A DNA stretch of 64,000 nt from contig OZ024749.1 in assembly GCA_964016885.1 (NCBI GenBank), positions 27,838,001 through 27,902,000 of the forward strand. The letters are read 5' to 3'. Shown piece by piece: positions 3,731 to 64,000 of this stretch (within the stretch, counting starts at the first letter, position 1; each line of letters opens with the position of its first letter). Under the pieces are notes generated by a model that ran no database searches, had not been told where the DNA came from, and was given only the letters and a program-made list of their open reading frames with translations. Position numbers and translations under genes: made by a program. The DNA comes from Eledone cirrhosa (Eukaryota).

Positions 3731-4207
3731 TTAAATTAAAATCTCCTAAAATAATTTCATATAAGAACTAGATATTAATTTCCTACATTAGTAATAGAAT
3801 AATTAATAATTTTATTTAAGCCCCTCAACATTCTTCATTAGTTAATTGAAATAGAAGAGTGTATTTCATTAGAAACATGGCCAAGAAGAGTTAAAATGTG
3901 AGTGGTTCACTATTTTCACAGACACGCATATCCTTAACGTAATTCTCAAGCTTAAATCAGCATGACAAAATATGACAAAGATGCACCTTTGAATTACAAA
4001 GTACAATTCATGTGACGGACTTCAGCATAGTTTCTGCTTACCTAATTTCACTTGCAAAACTTAGGTCAACTCAAGCTGATAGCAAAGACATTTGATCAAA
4101 ATTCCATGCAGTAGGATCAAACTTGGGACCTCACAGCTGCAAAAGAAAACTTCCTAACCAGTCAACCATGCCTATTACTACTACTGCTGTTGCTGCTACT
4201 ACTACAT

Positions 4208-4326
4208 GGAAGCATGTGGCTTAGTGGTTAGGGTATTGAGCTCATGATAATAAGGCTGTGTATTCGATTCCTGAACTGGACAGTATATTATGTTTTTGAG
4301 CAAGACACTTTATTTCATGTTGCTCC
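4208..4326 (+). mobile_element. SINE family B head (tRNA-like A/B boxes plus core start)
   Basis: tggcttagtggttag A box; ttcgattcc B box; ttgagcaagacactttatttcatgttgctcc. Confidence 0.75.
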
Positions 4327-4963
4327 TTCTGCCAGGAGTTGCGACCAGTAGATAGTATCAGCAATGGAAAAGCCAAGGGAAACATTGTTTCCTTGATCTG
4401 ATCTGATAATCAGTCCTTATTTTCTGCCAGGAGTTGTGACAGACAGATAGTATCTGTAATGGAAAGACCAATGGAAACATTGTTTTCTTGGTTCCTATAT
4501 ATACTATACCACCACCACTACTACTACCACCACCATTACAATTACTACTACAACTACTACATCAGCAGATATTAAAGTGTTGTTGTCAAGAGAAGGAAAC
4601 TGACTATTATTATTAACTAAAGAGATTGGCATTATTAGGTTATCTAATTGTTTAGTAATGAGTTTAGATTAACTGAAAAGTGGGGGGAGGGCAAAGAGAG
4701 GGAGAGTGAGCAATTTTTTGTAAATATCTACACTTACACATATAGTTATACAAGTGTGTGTGTGTGTATATATATATTAGCGTGGGAAATGGACATTAAA
4801 TGATGATGATATATTTATATATAATGAAGCTTATCGAATAGAATGGACACAACCATGGTCATTTTCTCACTCACTCCATGATTTAATTATGTCTATATCA
4901 TTAAAATATAAATCCCACAAATTAAGTGTACACTTACACAATTATGTGTGTGTGTGTGTGAGT

Positions 4964-5113
4964 GCAAAAAATAAACAGAAACAACAAAGTAAATGACACA
5001 GTACAATGAAGAAATTATTAGTTTAACGCTTATGATGGCAGGGAAAAGAGTTTTTACGTTTCGGACACTAGTCCTTCATCAGAAAATAGAATAAGAAATA
5101 AAAGATGAAATAG
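4964..5113 (-). mobile_element. HHR-bearing repeat family A, copy 2
   Basis: Homologous to 1576-1726; starts next to a (GT)n tract. Confidence 0.7.
5051..5086 (-). ncRNA. Minimal type I hammerhead ribozyme
   Basis: Minus strand: TTTT-CTGATGA-A-GGAC-TAGT-GTCC-GAAA-CG-TA-AAAA. Intact core, perfect 4-bp stem II, palindromic ACGT in place of stem III, GUA triplet, 4-bp stem I. Confidence 0.8.
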
Positions 5114-5724
5114 AAAATGAGAAGTGGAAAGAAAGGAAAATTATAAAAAAAAAAACGTGTATTCAGTCAGTCATTTTGGAGAAGAAAAAAAAAAAATATA
5201 TATACATGCTTTTGTTATATCTAAATAAGTCTGTTTATTTCTCAAATGTAACAGCAACAACACAGAATAAGATTATCTGAGATTGCTATTTTGAAGAAAT
5301 TGTCAGTTAAATTGGTTAGCAACACTCACACATCATTTACAATACTATCTGTGATCGGCCTAGAACTAAGAGTATTTCAAAGCTGTTGTTTACTATCAGT
5401 CGACATCTGGTAGCCAGATGTAATAACCCCTAAATAATTTCACTGCCAGATAAACAGATGTTAGAGTTCGTTATGACACAATCTTCAATATGCAATCTTC
5501 GTTCTTCACTTATATTTTATTATTTTCTCCTTATTACCATTTTCTCACCGTCTTGTGAAGTGAAGGTTTTCACTGATAAATCTTATCACACACACACCCA
5601 ATATTCCAGCTTGAAGCTAAGGACAGAAACAAGGTTCTATATAACTAATTGACCAAATACACAACAACTATAATCTGTTATATTAACACTTTCGTTACTA
5701 TATTTCTACTGAAACAATCGTCCT

Positions 5725-5853
5725 TCTTCTTTGCCCACTTATTCTTGAGAGAGTTGTTGGGGCAGAATGCTGAAACACTCTTTTCAGCAGGTTCTGTCAG
5801 AAGCAACTATCTCCAGTTGATCCAGCTGGATCCCCAAGTGAGACCAGCTGAAC
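5725..5853 (-). mobile_element. RTE-clade LINE 3' end
   Basis: FSWSHLGIQLDQLEIVASDR; homologous to 6075-6268. Confidence 0.7.
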
Positions 5854-6074
5854 TTGTGTGTGTATGTATGTATGTATGTATGTATGTATGTATGTATGTA
5901 TGTATGTATGTATGTATGTATGTATGTGAGTGTGAGTGTGTGTGTATATATATATATGACCTTGAAAAGGCTGGCCGAACACACATGCCAAAACTGCTTG
6001 GTGTTGCAGTCAAGATTTTACACATCTGTATATATATATATATATATCTATCTATCTAACTATATATATATATG

Positions 6075-6268
6075 TCCGTCACCCACTTATTCTTGAGGGG
6101 GTCGTCGGATGAAGAGTCCTCAAATACTCCTTCCCACAGGCCCTGTCAGAAGCAACCATCTCCAATTGATCTAGCTGAATCCCCAAACGAGACCAGCTGA
6201 GCTCATGGATGATATCCAACCATCTTGCTTGGAAAGTTTACCGCTGGGTCTCCTGCAAGTTGATCTTG
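6075..6268 (-). mobile_element. RTE-clade LINE 3' end
   Basis: RRPSG..ARWLDIIHELSWSRLGIQLDQLEMVASDR resembles the RTE/Expander C-terminus (RPRGRPRTRW..I..L.WSRLG). Confidence 0.75.
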
Positions 6269-6269
6269 A

Positions 6270-6792
6270 AAATAATAAAGAATTTGTAGGATTTAATAAT
6301 ATAACTAACCTTCTCATTATTAAGTTGGTGTTAGGACTATAACTTAATGGGGTTTCTCACATAGAATTATGATGAAAGGTTTTTAGATAAACACTTTAAC
6401 TCCTTTGTTACCAAATTTCTAATGAATTTCAAAATAATCAAGACATAGGAGGGATTTAGTAATATGAACTAACTTTATCATTATCAAGTGGGTGTTTGGA
6501 ATATAACTTAACAGAGGTTCTTACATAAAATTACGATGACATTTTTAATCCTTTCATTACCATATTTCTAATGAAAGACACTGCCTATGGTTTTCAGATC
6601 ATTTTGAAAATAATGAAGTATTTGGTGATATTTAGGAATATAACTAATTTTCTCATTATCAAGTTGCTGTTTGGAACATAAAAATTCTTGCATAAAATTA
6701 AGATGGAATGTTTTTTAAGCACTTTAAAATAAACAGTGTTCTATCATAGAACCAAGGGCGGTTTCAGGTAGTTTGGTGTGAAAAGGGCTAAA
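6270..6792. mobile_element. AT-rich MITE-like fragments (three partial copies)
   Basis: Repeated 'aactaa..ttctcattatcaagt..gtgtttggaa' blocks; ttaactccttt / aaaagggctaa ends; related sequence near 20260-20500 and 40060-40746. Confidence 0.5.
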
Positions 6793-7253
6793 GCTGGTGC
6801 ATATTTAGTGTAAAATATTAGTCATGATGGAAAGGGGGTTAGGTGGTGGTAGACTGTGTGTGAGATAGAGGGGGAGGGGTGAAGGGAAGAGAGAGAGGCA
6901 AAGGGAGAGAGAGAGGGAAGAGAGAGAGGCAAAGGGAGAGAGAGAGAGAGAGAGAGAGAGGTGGTGGTATCAGCCCCCCCCCATCCTGTTATGAAAAGCA
7001 ATGCGAGAAGCTCAAGAAACACCAGTCACCCACCACCCAGTCCAAGAATTGAACCCACAACCTTATGTTGATGAGTCCACAACACCCTTCCACTATTAAA
7101 TAAAATAAATAAATGAATAGATAGATAGATAAGAGGGTGCGATTATGCCAAGAAATTCTGCTGATTCTTTTAAAATAGCAATAAATAAAATAGTAAATAA
7201 AAAGATAAATATTATAAAGAATTTCATTTTTATAAAAACTGAAAAATATAAAA

Positions 7254-7968: not shown

Positions 7969-8070
7969 ACTATTTGCTCTACAGTTCTTATATATTTATC
8001 CTTATCGAGCCCTCTTTGGATTTTAGTCTTCAAATTTATTATTATTACTATATATATATATATATATATA

Positions 8071-8275
8071 TAGGAACGAGTAGGACCCCGACGGCTGAGC
8101 TCAAGCCGTTTCGACGGCTTATTCTGGACTAAATCTTAGTCCAGAATTAGCCATCGAAACGGCTTGAGCTCAGCCGTCGGGGTCCTACTCGTTCCTATTA
8201 CCCACTCTACTACCCTAAGTATTGAGTACTTTGGTGCGTTATGGTCCATCTGGTTCCTTACCACATGTCCTTCGT
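8071..8275 (+). mobile_element. Fold-back element family C (arms about 62 bp, tail about 78 bp) in (TA)n
   Basis: 8071-8132 is the inverted repeat of 8136-8197; GAAACGGCT-tgagctc-AGCCGTC; homologs at 24317, 55765, 56479, 57084, 63879. Confidence 0.85.
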
Positions 8276-8664
8276 TATATATATATATATATATATATGT
8301 TATAAATACATGTAAAATATATATATATTATATATATAGCACAGTTATATATCAACATTTGTCCCACCCTTGGAAGCAGGGAAAAGAGGACGTAAAATGA
8401 TGATGATATATATATATATATGTATATTAATATATATATAATATATATTAATATATGTATTAGAATATTAATATATATATTACAAATATATTAAACTACA
8501 CACACACATACACACATATATATATACATACATACATACATAAACTCCTTTTTCTCTCCTTTTCTCAGTCTACCTCCCTGCACATTTCACTCTCTCTCTT
8601 TCTCTGTCCAAACTCAGTGTAGATCCATGCTAACAGAGAAACAATCCAACACACACACACACAC

Positions 8665-24316: not shown

Positions 24317-24371
24317 GGATCTAGCTGTCGAAATGGCTGGAGCTCAGCTGTTGGGGTCCTGACTCTTTCCT
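24317..24371 (+). mobile_element. Decayed family C fragment
   Basis: tagctgtcgaaatggctggagctcagctgttggggtcc, after (TA)n. Confidence 0.7.
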
Positions 24372-29920: not shown

Positions 29921-30555
29921 TATCATCATCATCATCATCATCTTCATTATCTATGAATCCTGTAGACCACCACCTGGCAACATGGATGCCTTTAGTGGAG
30001 ACCACTCTAACCTATTGCAAACACTTAGGCTAGCCCAGCATTCTGGTTTGAGGGTAGCTTCCTTCCTTTCACCACAACTGGAGGCATTGAAAAAAAGGGC
30101 TACTGGACATAGCCCTTCCCTCCCAGGAAAATAAATAGATACAATAAAAAAGAGAAAAACCAAAAGAAAAAACATACAAACAAAACTAAAATAAAATATA
30201 ATTAAATGAAATGTACAGCCTGTCTGTGAGTTGGATTCCCATAGGTGACTATGTCCCCTTTTATACATCTCTAGGGGTTTACATGTCCAACTTGTTCAGC
30301 TATTTTATAGTCAAACATGCGTTGTTGCAGCTTACAATAAGCTAACACAATTTGAAACTTGAAATTTACTCAACATTTTGTAAAATGTTAGTTTATTTGT
30401 TTACATCTCATGGCTGATAGATAAGACTTTGAAATGTCAGTTAAGTTGTCAGTACCACTTTGGTGTAATGATAACACATCTGTCTGACATACAGCAAGCA
30501 GATGTGAGTTTGGTCCTCACAGGTGACACTGTCCAGTTTTTTTCTGTCTGTAGGG

Positions 30556-36530: not shown

Positions 36531-37087
36531 CCTTTAGTATTTACATTACTGTGGAGGCACATGGCTTAGTGGTTAGAGCATTTGCCTTGCAATCGAAAGG
36601 TTGTGAGTTCAATTCTCAGACCGGGTGATGTGTTGTTTCCTTGAGCAAGACACTTTATTTCACATTGCTCCAGTTTACTCAGCTGTAGAAATGAGATGAT
36701 AGAGACTGGGGTCCCTATCATTCCACTGCAAAGTGGTCGTGGAGGTGCCACGGCAAAAAAGCACCCAGCACTCACTGTGAAATGAGGTTGGTGTTAGGAA
36801 GGGCATCCAGCTGTAGAAATCAAGCCAGAATCAGTTCCCGTCCCACCCTTGCAAGCAGGGAAAAAGCGGACATAAAATGAAATGAAAAATGATGATGATT
36901 ACTCTATATTTACTATTATATTTTCATGGGAAAGGCTTTACCTCACATAATATCAAATCTATGAGATTTTGATATTGATTTTGAGAAAAATACCTTAACA
37001 TCAGTATGTGTCGCCAGTTACAGCTGGTTTGAACAGAAAGAGGTGAGAGAGTTCTGTCCGGAAATGGTTGGCTTAAATGCTAAAAGG
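36531..37087. mobile_element. piggyBac-like MITE interrupted by SINE B
   Basis: TTAA at 36527 and 37088; body matches 18188-18425. Confidence 0.8.
36551..36897 (+). mobile_element. Full-length SINE family B with 6-bp TSD ATTACT
   Basis: ATTACT at 36545-36550 and 36898-36903; single ATTACT in the empty MITE at 18188. Confidence 0.92.
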
Positions 37088-55764: not shown

Positions 55765-55936
55765 GAAAAAGTATGACCCCGACGGCAGAGCTCAAGCCGT
55801 TTCGACGGCTATTTGTGGAGTCCAGAAATAGCCATCGAAACGGCTTGAGCTCTGCCGTCGGAGTCATACTTTTTCCTATTACCTACTCTACTACCCTAAG
55901 TATTGAGTACTCTGGTTCCTTACCACATTTCCTTCG

Positions 55937-55937
<1 letters not shown>
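55765..55937 (+). mobile_element. Fold-back element family C
   Basis: Arms 55765-55819 / 55821-55875, then tail into (TA)n. Confidence 0.85.
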
Positions 55938-55983
<46 letters not shown>

Positions 55984-56111
55984 AAAGTTCTATTTAAAGT
56001 TGTTGGGATACAACAAGTAAATATTTTTATAACTGATATAAAGCACTCGACAAATTTTTGGAGTAGATATGCGATATTAATAAATGGAAACTATATTTAT
56101 AAAACCATATT

Positions 56112-56176
56112 TATTTCATTATACATATTTCAGGGATACCACATTAAATTATGGTATGCCTTCATCAGACAAAATA
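56112..56176 (-). ncRNA. Type I hammerhead ribozyme (family B)
   Basis: TATTTTGT-CTGATGA-agg c atacca ta atttaa tg tggtat c cct-GAAA-TATGTA-TA-ATGAAATA. Confidence 0.8.
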
Positions 56177-56346
56177 CAATATATATCAGTTTTACAAATA
56201 GGTTTCTCTTTCTTTCTCTCCGTCTTTTTCTAATTGTGCTTAACACTTTGACTTATATAAACAAATCACTATCAATACAGCCTCCAAAAGTAATGGTTGT
56301 ATTTTAAAGGGTACGTCAAACCTATTTGTAAAACTGTTATATATTG

Positions 56347-56411
56347 TATTTTGTCTGATGAAGGCATACCATAATTTAATGTGGCATCCCTGAAATATGT
56401 ATAATGAAATA
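56347..56411 (+). ncRNA. Type I hammerhead ribozyme (family B)
   Basis: Inverted twin of 56112-56176 with one extra stem II mismatch; predicted cut after A56403. Confidence 0.78.
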
Positions 56412-56451
56412 AATATGGTTTTATAAATATAGTTTCCATTTATAAATATCG

Positions 56452-56478
<27 letters not shown>

Positions 56479-56482
<4 letters not shown>

Positions 56483-56600
56483 CGACAAGAGCTCAGCCGG
56501 TGAGCCCCGACTCTTTCTAACATAGTCATACTGTACTATCCCAAATATCGAGTACTCTGTTGAATAATGGTCTAACGAGTTTAATACTGGTTCAATCCAG
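56479..56600 (+). mobile_element. Diverged family C relative
   Basis: gaaacgacaagagctcagccgg...actgtactatcccaaatatcgagtactctg...atggtc, between (TA)n tracts. Confidence 0.55.
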
Positions 56601-56616
56601 ATATATATATACATAC

Positions 56617-56647
<31 letters not shown>

Positions 56648-56810
56648 CATATATACATATCCACACACACATTATCATCATCATTATTATGTCAATTTCA
56701 TTTATTGTGTTAAGATTAATGATCATCTGTAAATTAAAGGTGTGGGTTCCATATTTTTTGGAATATATATGTATATATACGTGTGTGTGTATGTGTGTGT
56801 TTATATACAC

Positions 56811-56883
<73 letters not shown>

Positions 56884-57043
56884 CATACATATATATATAT
56901 ATATACATGCACACATGTGCATATGTAACGTATAAACAAGATGTGACCCTCCGACCTCATCCAGTCACTGACCGTGACAACCTGTGTAACCCATACCAGC
57001 ATGGAAAACGGGCATATGATGATGACAACATACCTACACTAAC

Positions 57044-57083
<40 letters not shown>

Positions 57084-57084
<1 letters not shown>

Positions 57085-57226
57085 GGACTCAGTCCAGAAT
57101 TAGCCGTCGAAACGGCTTGAGCTCAGCCGTCGGGGTCTTACTGGTTCCTATTACCCACTCTACTACCCTAAGTATTGAGTACTTTGGTGCGTTATGGTCC
57201 ACCTGGTTCCTTACCACATTTCCTTT

Positions 57227-57229
<3 letters not shown>
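57084..57229 (+). mobile_element. Family C, single arm plus tail
   Basis: tggactcagtccagaattagccgtcgaaacggcttgagctcagccgtcggggtc..., (TA)n on both sides. Confidence 0.85.
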
Positions 57230-57267
<38 letters not shown>

Positions 57268-57403
57268 GTCAAGCTAAGAAGAAAACGATGAAAGACACCA
57301 GTTGACAAGTGAACCAGCCATGTTAAGGAATTCCAAACGACCCAAATAAAGATTGACAAACAGAATACATTAAAGTGAATCAGTGACATATATATATATA
57401 TAT

Positions 57404-57441
<38 letters not shown>

Positions 57442-57444
57442 GCG

Positions 57445-57636
57445 CGACGATGAGCTGAAAAGTTCATAGGCTGACCAAGATACTCTCATGGCATGAGCAA
57501 ATCAGGTTCATTTTCAACGTAGCCCCCGGAAAGAAACAATGCAATTATTAATAAGAGCTGAAATTAATACATGCAAGATTTCACAGCTCTATCATCACTG
57601 CATCAGTCAGCCTATGAACCTTTCAGACGATCCTCG
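57445..57636. mobile_element. Mariner-like MITE or deletion derivative
   Basis: TIRs ctgaaaagttcataggctgac / gtcagcctatgaacctttcag. Confidence 0.75.
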
Positions 57637-57703
<67 letters not shown>

Positions 57704-57704
57704 A

Positions 57705-57985
57705 TAAGAAGAGCCAATATGAAATTGAAAAAAGAATGGAGGAAAATGGACATATTGTGGTTTCTTGCCTGAGATTGGTTCTGGTTAGCAGTCACGGACG
57801 ACGATTTTGGTGTGTGGTTTAATAATCCATTCCGTGGGGACGACGAAAACTCCAGGTTGGTGCCATTTGGGATACAGATACACCTGTGTTTGGTCTCTGT
57901 CGCGGAGACAGGTAAAGCATTTTGGACCCGTCTCCAACAGAATCGCAGTCTTAGGCATTCCATGGAAACATCCGTAAACAGTTAC
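57705..57985. mobile_element. Unclassified CpG-retaining insert, possibly a non-LTR 3' end
   Basis: Bounded by microsatellites; hairpin ggagacagg...cccgtctcc. Confidence 0.35.
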
Positions 57986-58543
57986 ATATATAGATAGATA
58001 TACGTTCGTACGTATGTATGTATATAGATATATATAGGTATATATATATATATATATTTTAATCCTTTACCTGTTCCAGCCGATGGGCTATCGGTATATA
58101 TACGTATGTTGGCATGTGTAGGTATATTTATATGTTCGTATACATGTATACACGTTTATGTTTGTGTATATATAATATATATGCCTATATATAATATAAT
58201 AAATGTGTATGACGATATAGATAATATATTAAAAGTTAAATCTAGTGATGAAATATAAATTTATTTTGGTGGACGTTGATGTTTGAAAATACGAAAGATA
58301 GAGAGAAAATATAAAAATAATCTTATCGTATAGGAGGTTCTCCTAGCCTCTACTTTCAATATGACAACCAAGCTTGGTGTGTGTGAGGAGGGCGTCTGTA
58401 CGTGTGAGGGAGTGTGTATGTGTCTGTGAGTACGTCTGACTGCTTGTGTGTGTCTGTGTGTATGTCTGACTGCTTGTGTATGTGTGTGTAGGTATGAGGG
58501 TGTGTACGTGTGAGGAAGGGTGTGTGTGTGTACGTGTGAGGGA

Positions 58544-58580
<37 letters not shown>

Positions 58581-59080
58581 TGCGTACGTCTGACTGCATG
58601 TGTGTCTGTGTTGGTGCCTGTGTGTGTCTGCGTACGTCTGACTGCATGTGTGTCTGTGTTGGTGCCTGTGTGTGTCTGCTTGTGTGTGTGTATGTTTGTG
58701 CTTGAGTGTGTGTACGTGAGTGTGTGTGTCCGTACGTGTGAGTTATGTGTGTGTGAGTGCCTGTGTGTGTACGTGAAAGTAACTGAGTGTATGTGTAAGT
58801 AAGAAGCGTTTATCCGTAGATATGTACTTAATACATTAAGTCAATAAACTACACATCTTATGTCTGACAGAATTCTTAGATTCTTGAAACGGTTCCTGTC
58901 CTGTAGAAGTCATTTTTATTTTTATTTTTATCAGAAATAAATTATACATACGTGTGTATATGCGTGCATGTATGTGTGAGCATATGTCTATGTATATGTA
59001 AATATGTGTGTGTATATTTGAAGTGTATGAGTGTGTGTACTTGTGGGTGTGTGTGTGTGTATGTGTGTGTATATGTGAAG

Positions 59081-59115
<35 letters not shown>

Positions 59116-59980
59116 GTGTGAAGAGTGTGTGTATGAGTGTGTATGTAACGTGTTGTTGGTTAAGACTGTTTGCCCAATTAACAATGAGAGAGAGAGAGAA
59201 AGCACTAATTATCGAAAATATGACGAAGAGATATGAAAAAAAAGAAGACACACAAGAAACAAAGTCAAACAAAAGTCACACACACACACACAGTCACATA
59301 CACACAGTCACACACAAACTGTTGAGGGAATTCGTAGTAAAAAATACGGAGACATTCACCATAAATCTAGAATATTATCTCACTCCTCATCCTTCACCTT
59401 CTGTTATTGGTGGGGGTGAAGGTGGTGGTGGTGGTGGTGTTGTTGAAGATGGTGTTATTGTTGTCGTCGGTTGGTGGTGGTGGTGGTTGTGGTGGTGATG
59501 GTGAAGGTGGTGGTGTTGTTGGTAGTTTTGGTGGTTGTGATGGTGTTGTTGGTGATGGTGGTAGTGAAGGTGTTGATGGTGATGATGGTATTGGTGGTAG
59601 TGAAGATGGTATTATTGTTGTCGGTGGTGGTGGTGATGGTGATGTTGATGGTGGTGATGGTGTTAGTGTTGTTGGTAGTGGTGATGTTGGTGACGGTAGA
59701 GATGGTGTTAGTGGTAGTGGCGCTGGTGGTGTTAGTGGCGCTGGTGGTGGTGTCGGTGTTGTTGAGAGGAGGGAAGAAAAGTGAGAGACAGTCAAGTACA
59801 GACTAGAGAGCCAGCAATGTTGTGTATACAACAGTGGAAAAGGGGGAACCCCTCTCATACACCACCACCGCCACCACTATTATTATTATATCACAAGTAT
59901 GTATGTATGTATATATATATACACACACGCATACACACGGGACTGACATCGAGTGTGTGTGTGAGAGTGTGTGATAATTG

Positions 59981-60019
<39 letters not shown>

Positions 60020-60050
60020 TAAATGGAAACTATATTTATAAAACCATATT

Positions 60051-60116
60051 TATTTTATTATACATATTTCAAGGGCAACCAAGGCAAATTATGGTGCGCT
60101 TTCATCAGATAAAATA
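60051..60116 (-). ncRNA. Type I hammerhead ribozyme (family B)
   Basis: Exact reverse complement of 60244-60309. Confidence 0.82.
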
Positions 60117-60243
60117 CAGATTTGTTTTATAAATAAATATTGACATACCCGGAAAAAAAGGCAACCTTAAAGGAAGCTCCAACCGTTAAGGTTGCCTTTT
60201 TTTCCGGGTATGTCAATATTTATTTATTTATAAAACAAATCTG

Positions 60244-60309
60244 TATTTTATCTGATGAAAGCGCACCATAATTTGCCTTGGTTGCCCTTGAAATATGTAT
60301 AATAAAATA
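60244..60309 (+). ncRNA. Type I hammerhead ribozyme (family B)
   Basis: TATTTTAT-CTGATGA-aag c gca cca taatttgcct tgg t tgc c ctt-GAAA-TATGTA-TA-ATAAAATA; 8-bp stem I; AUA triplet; predicted cut after 60301. Confidence 0.82.
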
Positions 60310-60423
60310 AATAGGATTTTATAAATATAGTTTCCATTTATTAATATATTGTATATTTACTCCACTAACTGTTGAGTGTTTTATATCAGTTATAAATTTT
60401 TTAAAATTAAATATAACCTCAGC

Positions 60424-60460
<37 letters not shown>

Positions 60461-63843: not shown

Positions 63844-63878
<35 letters not shown>

Positions 63879-63880
<2 letters not shown>

Positions 63881-64000
63881 GAAGGAATTGTGGTAAGGAA
63901 CCAGATGGACCATAACGCACCAGAGTACTCAATACTTAGGGTAGTAGAGTGGATAATAGGAAAAAGTATGACCCCGACGGCAGAGCTCAAGCCGTTTCGA
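63879..64000 (-). mobile_element. Family C element, cut by the window end
   Basis: Reverse complement of tail plus arm; same subfamily as 55765 (gaaaaagtatgacccc, ggcagagctc). Confidence 0.85.

Follow-up and report, generated by a model that had tools for sequence, protein, structure and literature searches.

Twin hammerhead motifs in the Eledone cirrhosa genome lie in head-to-head insertions of a Penelope-like element with a duplicated leader hairpin

In a 64,000-nucleotide window of the 3.0-Gb Eledone cirrhosa genome (GCA_964016885.1, contig OZ024749.1; G000:C9:27838001-27902000), two short palindromic elements each carry a minus-strand and a plus-strand hammerhead ribozyme motif back to back. 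What are these elements, and how did the two hammerheads of each come to lie head to head? The original prediction, made from the letters of the window, proposed a ribozyme active in source elements with the geometry of a Penelope-like element (PLE). In a stem-checked scan of the whole window for type I hammerheads (core CUGANGA / GAAA / NUH with stems I and II present), the four predicted CTGATGA...GAAA cores were found in their places (+ 56355, − 56168, + 60252 and − 60108), together with one core of another family; the identical scan of the reversed window found zero. The observation was confirmed and its interpretation is partly supported. The elements are almost certainly 5′-truncated head-to-head insertions of a PLE, and the twin arrangement is a by-product of insertion and no designed pair, since opposite-strand hammerhead pairs, inverted pseudo-long terminal repeats (pLTRs) and a one-sided tail have already been published.

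The parent encodes a reverse transcriptase with a C-terminal GIY-YIG endonuclease

Element 1 (55981..56452), of the e1 subfamily, is a head-to-head inverted insertion in (TA)n, 93-97% identical to the long copy L101, with inverted arms (56064-56205/56318-56459) that share 96% identity. Element 2 (60011..60425), of the e2 subfamily, is likewise a head-to-head inverted insertion, between (TA)n and (GA)n, and its arms (60011-60139/60221-60349) are 98% identical. In both elements each arm carries differences of its own, and the arms match young repeats, being 86-97% identical to long copies. Upstream in the long copies, an AT-rich stretch of 1.7 kb leads into a GIY-YIG frame, and a query with this frame retrieved full-length copies. 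The parent reverse transcriptase (RT)/GIY-YIG element that the original prediction had advised looking for was thus found: it has a 742-aa open reading frame (ORF) with an RT plus a GIY-YIG domain at its C terminus, intact in copies L103 and L102, and its full-length copies share the predicted PLE-type layout of pLTR and tail.

In L103, the order is (TA)n, inverted pLTR with tail (4202-4441), pLTR, leader, ORF (4783-7011), 3′ untranslated region (UTR), pLTR and (TA)n. The hammerhead motif is located in the pLTR, and the unit reads hammerhead - P - hairpin 1 - D - hairpin 2 - ATG - ORF - 1.7-kb 3′ UTR - hammerhead, P and D being the two ends at which copies stop. Partial tandems give direct and inverted pLTRs with an optional tail (L103, L099, L101, L106 and L117). 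The subfamily of element 2 has a separate ORF, ∼75% identical. Thousands of copies of the parent family lie in (TA)n, and four exact end patterns had 2058, 3152, 1691 and 2298 matches (>9,000 in total), with 0 for the same patterns read backwards.

A structural model of the protein (pLDDT 85.7) had telomerase RTs (TERT) as its best fold matches (E 3e-9). Pfam matches were weak, with GIY-YIG at E 5.5e-4 on a fragment, under the cut-off, and RVT_1 in 3/24 homologues; Pfam on the full protein gave no RT match, and a PDB sequence search returned weak matches. By motif, the parent fits the Hydra clade of C-terminal endonuclease-positive (EN+) PLEs as the text of Craig et al. (2021, PMC8557442) defines it: like that clade, it combines RT and C-terminal GIY-YIG with DKT, a CxCX5C linker, CxxC and CxH around E and N, no CCHH, a pLTR hammerhead and (TA)n targets. 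The position of the RWK motif reads RWR, as it does in homologues and in Hydra-1_Crog, and the likeness to Hydra-1_Amil and Hydra-1_Obim was judged by eye. Because of its 1.7-kb 3′ UTR, the unit measures ∼4.3 kb, against a clade tendency (not a strict criterion) to <3 kb. The same text notes an inverted 5′-truncated copy of Penelope-13_HM and gives Hydra-1_Obim for an octopus; the hammerhead of Hydra-1_oBim differs from that of the window. It describes the tail as 'often' one-sided and 30-40 bp long, whereas here the tail is 87 nt and one-sided in 104/106 pairs. Twin hammerheads in PLE geometry, inverted pLTRs with a one-sided tail and (TA)n targeting are already known; the parent adds a family to an established clade and has a cis-element that seems not to have been described before.

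Head-to-head insertions join one P end to one D end

Where do the arms stop? Arms end either at P (L103 position 4652) or at D (4739), 87 nt apart, and the tail is the leader sequence between them. Both sites are TA runs of 5-6 nt and, in sets not chosen by TA, TA followed 82/85 D ends and 71/77 P ends (153/162 together). The original prediction had described a shared tail on one arm only, and this is how the window elements are built. In element 1 the tail belongs to the minus-strand arm, which stops at D (55981..56205); the tail itself (55981..56066) corresponds to the beginning of the parent 5′ leader, as identified from read-through copies L101, L103 and L117. The tail-less plus-strand arm (56206..56452) stops at P and extends ∼112-120 nt farther 5′ than its partner. 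In element 2 the strands are exchanged: the D arm is on the plus strand (60172..60425), and the tail-less minus-strand arm (60011..60171) stops a few nt before the usual P site, within the same TA run.

This asymmetry recurs across the family. Among 106 distinct head-to-head pairs from 337 loci, 104 were P+D, 2 were P+P and 0 were D+D, although 39 of the 106 had been chosen with tail-bearing queries and hence were unable to show P+P. Selection by the endonuclease only gave 19/19 P+D pairs, and selection by a single end pattern gave 47/49. Coordinate lists for C1 1-126 Mb gave 24 P+D, 0 D+D and 1 apparent P+P, where independent choice would be expected to give ∼12 per homotype.

Several apparent homotypes were rejected. 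The apparent P+P on C1 1-126 Mb resolves to two adjacent P+D inserts, and further apparent D+D (L103, L106) and P+P cases (L162, L113, L130/L131) came down to misclassified read-through arms, a tail carrying a deletion, a mutated tail or adjacent inserts. The remaining P+P is one insert that is present twice, and was fetched deliberately as a suspected exception. Its two copies (L298 and L299; G000:C1:213134100-213134800 and 213236430-213237130) lie 102 kb apart in opposite orientation and have arms of 31-40 nt round ∼112 nt of unrelated sequence, possibly a captured foreign template.

The 63 central junctions fell into 54 distinct bins. As the junctions differ among copies, each inversion formed anew. 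Inserts span 140 nt to 7 kb, with sizes clustering at ∼350-500 nt. Arms of the same insert differed by a mean of 2.5 nt, compared with 7.3 nt between insertions (79 pairs). No pair was clearly of mixed subfamily, with 2/79 discordant in a coarse classifier and not inspected singly. Either arm may be the longer one: in the 19 endonuclease-bearing pairs, the endonuclease was in the P arm only in 9, in the D arm only in 7 and in both in 3. Therefore, a simple fold-back of one cDNA is ruled out, because it would need the tail on the longer arm.

The opposite, 5′ ends of the arms also cluster. The A of CACTATCC lies ∼184 nt upstream of the anchor. In a census of 203 arms chosen by end patterns, 46 ended within the 16-nt stretch that reaches up to this A, against 5 in the adjoining 16 nt on the upstream side (p 2e-9) and 18 in a stretch of 16 nt downstream. 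This pile-up probably marks the RNA 5′ end. The landmark lies at 56267..56274 (+) in element 1, with one change, and the 5′ end of the element 2 D arm falls inside the pile-up. A second pile-up at 105-109 nt was an artefact of absent e2 references and was gone once these were added; four e2 read-through extents were alignment failures and were left out. In L099, L102, L105 and L117, the upstream pLTR runs 150-800 nt beyond the presumed RNA start. Such over-long copies fit a circular, tandem or re-jumped template, hammerhead-made circles being one route among others.

The same hairpin follows both ends

What sets P and D apart from other TA runs? An equally long TA run within the tail is not used as an end, so TA pairing alone does not define P and D. 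Read-through copies show the same bulged hairpin 2-3 nt beyond either site; it consists of a 4-bp RCTC/GAGY stem, a 2-nt bulge, one further pair and a variable loop. Hairpin 1 of element 1 (56043..56064, −) has an ACTC/GAGT stem, the 2-nt bulge and a C-G pair and begins 2 nt past P, and that of element 2 (60359..60379, +) lies immediately past P; in the two local subfamilies, hairpin 1 has A-U as the base pair of its stem. Element 2 is without hairpin 2 because the copy stops at D, directly before it.

The hairpin is conserved far beyond this genome. In 80 metagenome loci encoding relatives of ∼35% protein identity, the hairpin motif occurred 79 times in sense, compared with 16 times in antisense and 10 times in reversed sequence; the hammerhead was present in 25/80 of these loci versus 0/80 when reversed. 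Where the ORF start could be matched (32 loci), two hairpins lay within 200 nt of the ATG in 14, one in 8 and none in 10, and 32 ORF-internal controls contained 0. In 24 leaders the two hairpins were spaced 59-74 nt apart. The search pattern imposed no pair above the bulge; this pair was C-G in 27, U-A in 14 and unpaired in 0 of 41 hairpins. At the distant loci, 7/8 distinct informative 3′ ends, meaning ends of copies for which a closely related read-through leader was available for comparison, fell 2-6 nt before hairpin 1 or 2; this set comprised 9 rows (8 distinct sites) after 3 contig-edge, 7 other-family-reference and all read-through rows had been dropped. Two published Hydra consensus sequences likewise show the hairpin at their 3′ end. 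Pairing between the TA runs of P and D was considered and rejected, as it appeared in one fold only, is trivial for TA runs and belonged to a fold that was not significant.

The words hairpin and stem-loop are absent from the main text and supplement text searched of PMC8557442. In the wider literature, judged mostly without full text, we found no description of a hairpin duplicated in the leader, of a strict rule of one site per arm or of twin priming by PLEs; this negative covers text and not figures, among which Figs S1-S2 of PMC11167929 and those in the supplement of PMC8557442 could bear on the point. As a side observation, metagenome collections often contained Hydra-type PLE proteins, with 184 stretches confirmed and 475 clusters at E<1e-30, far exceeding the 27 families in the text of PMC8557442, and Pfam misses most of them.

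Two cut strands may prime on one RNA

How could an insertion acquire one end of each kind? We favour the explanation that reverse transcription starts on one RNA from both cut strands of a (TA)n target, each strand using one hairpin, and probably each insertion was formed in this way. Each hairpin would bind one RT and bring the TA run of 5-6 nt that lies directly 5′ of the hairpin into the active site. The endonuclease would nick both (TA)n strands, and each 3′ end would anneal to one TA run; both cDNAs would then proceed toward the RNA 5′ end, with the rear RT displacing the front cDNA. Many cDNAs would halt at the RNA 5′ end ∼184 nt upstream and yield short twin-hammerhead palindromes such as element 2, while others would go on, either jumping to the 3′ pLTR or following a circular or tandem RNA. 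End joining would link the two cDNA ends. As one RNA offers two different sites, P+D pairs result by construction.

The closest experimental parallel is PAc, a Poseidon PLE of Anolis (Frangieh et al. 2024, PMC11167929), which, as its text describes, likewise inserts at AT-rich targets and in vitro initiates RT internally at two sites bounding the tail, with both strands cut and extended, supporting parts of our proposal. PAc differs in starting within one AC-rich stem loop without primer homology, whereas here P and D are each accompanied by a separate copy of the hairpin and by a target-matching TA run; inverted copies are not discussed in the text of that study. Pen2a_Av and other Adineta vaga PLEs are similar to L103 in having two direct pLTRs and one inverted, with the tail on one inverted end, and differ in that their description (text of PMC3846280) offers a self-priming explanation, low copy numbers and no counts of end types. 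More tentatively, we suggest that Hydra PLEs may possess a twin hairpin for loading RT and that it may direct 'fixed-site twin priming', with two RTs on one RNA and one nicked strand for each.

Twin priming has a precedent in L1 elements, for which Ostertag and Kazazian are said to have proposed in 2001 that two target strands prime on one RNA and so produce an inversion. The second L1 primer reportedly anneals at variable internal sites, giving two cDNAs without overlap. Unlike in L1 twin priming, both sites here are fixed and the cDNAs overlap.

A number of observations weigh against the proposal of one RNA with two priming hairpins. Hairpin-RT binding, action as RNA rather than as single-stranded DNA and the use of one RNA for both primers are steps that we infer, and arms of the same subfamily would equally fit two RNAs from one source locus. 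The anole PLE showed no strand difference in start site and no primer-template homology in vitro (text of PMC11167929). Of the 203 arms in the census, 72 run past the 5′ landmark, and the four over-long copies exceed one unit and need an extra step. Among 40 endonuclease-chosen loci there were 16 endonuclease-bearing arms with no inverted partner within 10 kb. L402 and L414 count as doubtful exceptions, the duplicated P+P insert with its ∼112-nt foreign spacer breaks the pair rule, and at the distant locus L324 the end lies 27 nt before hairpin 2. As for the hairpin, its lower stem was selected by the search pattern in 41 rows that are related and hand-picked, its upper pairs are often unpaired (21/41 and 11/33), and the whole tail folds no better than shuffled sequence (z −0.5).

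What other routes lead to paired ends? Two RNAs, possibly joined via the palindromic helix III, could prime one strand each. Helix III is self-complementary in the window family and in 15 distant relatives (8/10 to 10/10 positions), both arms may reach kilobases (3/19), and strand displacement would be unnecessary. However, two equal RNAs predict P+P and D+D, and with 0 D+D and one odd P+P insert in 106 pairs an extra asymmetry is required, such as an ordered first-nick/second-nick rule that assigns hairpin 2 versus hairpin 1; the lack of a clear mixed-subfamily pair among 79 also speaks against this route, and we think it unlikely. Alternatively, the GIY-YIG endonuclease might read the hairpins in single-stranded cDNA or DNA, so that P and D would be cleavage or resolution sites instead of RT starts. 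The text of PMC8557442 ascribes the tail most likely to EN-mediated resolution, the D. virilis EN, as cited in the text of PMC11167929, required the tail for cutting, and the lower stem is nearly invariant, like a protein site. We regard this as distinctly unlikely, given that hairpin 2 is missing from D-ended copies and hairpin 1 from P-ended ones, which is what a hairpin 3′ of an RT start on the template would produce, that both anole RT starts coincide with tail ends (PMC11167929), and that a variable loop length and a covarying pair past the bulge speak against a double-stranded DNA site.

The self-priming proposal of PMC3846280, by which one cDNA or antisense RNA snaps back and is copied, would account for palindromes with short junction overlaps (30/63 by BLAST) and for private variants common to both arms, and its antisense-template version keeps a small probability. 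Nevertheless, a fold-back copy cannot reach beyond the first strand, which predicts that the arm with the tail is the longer; instead, the tail-less arm alone has the endonuclease in 9/19 pairs, and it is the longer in 31/55 mostly short pairs and in element 1, making fold-back very unlikely. Least credible, and in our view scarcely tenable, is that the palindromes are a separate unit, whether a MITE-like (miniature inverted-repeat transposable element) or retrozyme-like element, a host-kept twin ribozyme or source of double-stranded RNA, or an assembly fold-back artefact. The clustered sizes and the very stable hairpin that a read-through RNA would form are in keeping with such a unit. Against it stand the varied junctions, the spans of 140 nt to 7 kb, the asymmetry of the arms at two biologically defined ends and the differences private to single arms; the varied junctions already refute it as a general account. 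In particular, a MITE would be a uniform unit with symmetric terminal inverted repeats, in contrast to the 54 bins among 63 junctions and the asymmetric ends. Non-LTR retrozymes were rejected, as the copies are dispersed, head-to-head and contiguous with a coding element, and no tandem head-to-tail array was seen.

If correct, fixed-site twin priming would be one mechanism behind inverted pLTRs, the tail on one side and the short palindromes that resemble strong-stop products; it would apply across PLEs and would give this sister group of telomerase a defined template-boundary element. The text of PMC8557442 lists the formation of tandem and inverted PLE structures and the microsatellite bias as open problems, and later insertion steps are unvalidated in the sole in-vitro system, as described in the text of PMC11167929. 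A short, conserved, duplicated cis-element together with a near-absolute rule of one arm per site reduces the question to a small mutagenesis experiment. For this RT-endonuclease, compact at 742 aa and a relative of telomerase, the hairpin would provide an RNA handle of minimal size, and the family, with its intact-ORF copies and >9,000 exact end matches, is a good substrate.

The hammerhead is a conserved motif of the source element

What, then, is the role of the hammerhead? The minus-strand motifs occupy 56112..56176 and 60051..60116, with cuts predicted 3′ of A56120 and A60059, and the plus-strand motifs occupy 56347..56411 and 60244..60309, with cuts predicted after A56403 and A60301; for the last of these the original prediction had the register correct. 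Rfam at gathering score found zero hammerheads in the window, and the four monomers folded no better than shuffles (z −0.23, 0.71, 0.06 and −1.19), although minimum free energy folding does recover stems I and II. Therefore, the case for a hammerhead rests on the core letters and on comparison.

An alignment was made of 27 variants, namely those that recur among 297 motifs and those of the window itself. In it, 98.6% of cells were paired and three stem II pairs changed on both sides, one via a G-U intermediate (A-U 12, G-C 10, G-U 5), so the covariation first described between the two elements holds over this set; because the 27 rows are related subfamilies, this represents few independent events. 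Within the window, the paired changes of stem II are as first described, except that the plus-strand arm of element 1 has CAT for TAT, breaking one pair. Stem I stays paired as claimed, yet its changes are one-sided G-U/A-U swaps and hence not compensatory. Stem III, first described as invariant, is not so across the family: of this 8-nt helix, the G varies in 15% of 197 e1-type and 32% of 96 e2-type arms. The variants inspected carry A for G, and both forms are self-complementary.

The motif resembles the minimal PLE hammerheads in the text of Cervera and de la Pena (2014, PMC4209133) in being type I, with a long helix II and a palindromic helix III that needs a dimer; that text also reports dual motifs on opposite strands, 100-700 bp apart. 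By comparison with those hammerheads, here A10.1-U11.1 replaces the conserved G-C, the cleavage triplet is AUA and stem I has 8 bp. The G10.1-C11.1 pair is absent from 27/27 variants, which have A-U, and is G-C in 12/15 distant relatives, 14/15 of which have G at 10.1; AUA is the triplet of this family, and GUA that of 15/15 distant relatives.

Conservation and covariation argue that the hammerhead is kept in source elements, where its activity is putative. It would work in the source RNA, probably as a dimer via the palindromic helix III, and would be a passenger in the inserted palindromes. PLE hammerheads have been described as weak, dimeric or protein-assisted (PMC4209133, PMC11167929) and as dispensable for insertion in vitro (PMC11167929). 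Only 1/203 arm 5′ ends lay within 2 nt of the predicted cut, about background and with no pile-up, so cleaved RNA is no common template. As originally proposed, a read-through transcript would form a long hairpin masking the ribozyme: folding predicts burial in both palindromes, at −218 and −248 kcal/mol. Two further features were noted. In the L103 leader (4459-4790), stem I is predicted to continue below an internal loop into an extra ∼20-bp helix, and four distant Hydra-type hammerheads (L337, L360, L332 and L384) have stem I letters near those of element 2 despite ∼35% protein identity.

Other repeats in and around the window

A second, minimal hammerhead family occurs at 5082 (−) and 1694 (−), with a short stem II, GAAACGT and ∼110 nt of common downstream sequence that ends near TTTTGCA; it is likely another PLE family. 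Beside two copies of the main family elsewhere lie coding repeats, namely what we take to be a Penelope/Poseidon-type RT with GIY-YIG on the minus strand of L066 (7095-9172) and, in a 909-aa frame on the minus strand of L067, presumably an RTE-like long interspersed element.

Some ends of the main family (L019, L022 and L144) fall at the same spot of another repeat instead of in (TA)n, a possible secondary target. Within the window, another palindromic repeat family in (TA)n is found at 55766-55940, 57091-57229, 63876-64000, 8070-8278, 24322-24368 and 56529-56559; it often adjoins PLE copies and was also seen at L016, L034 and L059. Weak tRNA matches at 30454-30528 and 36562-36619 (Rfam 34.9 and 31.1 bits) are probably heads of short interspersed elements.

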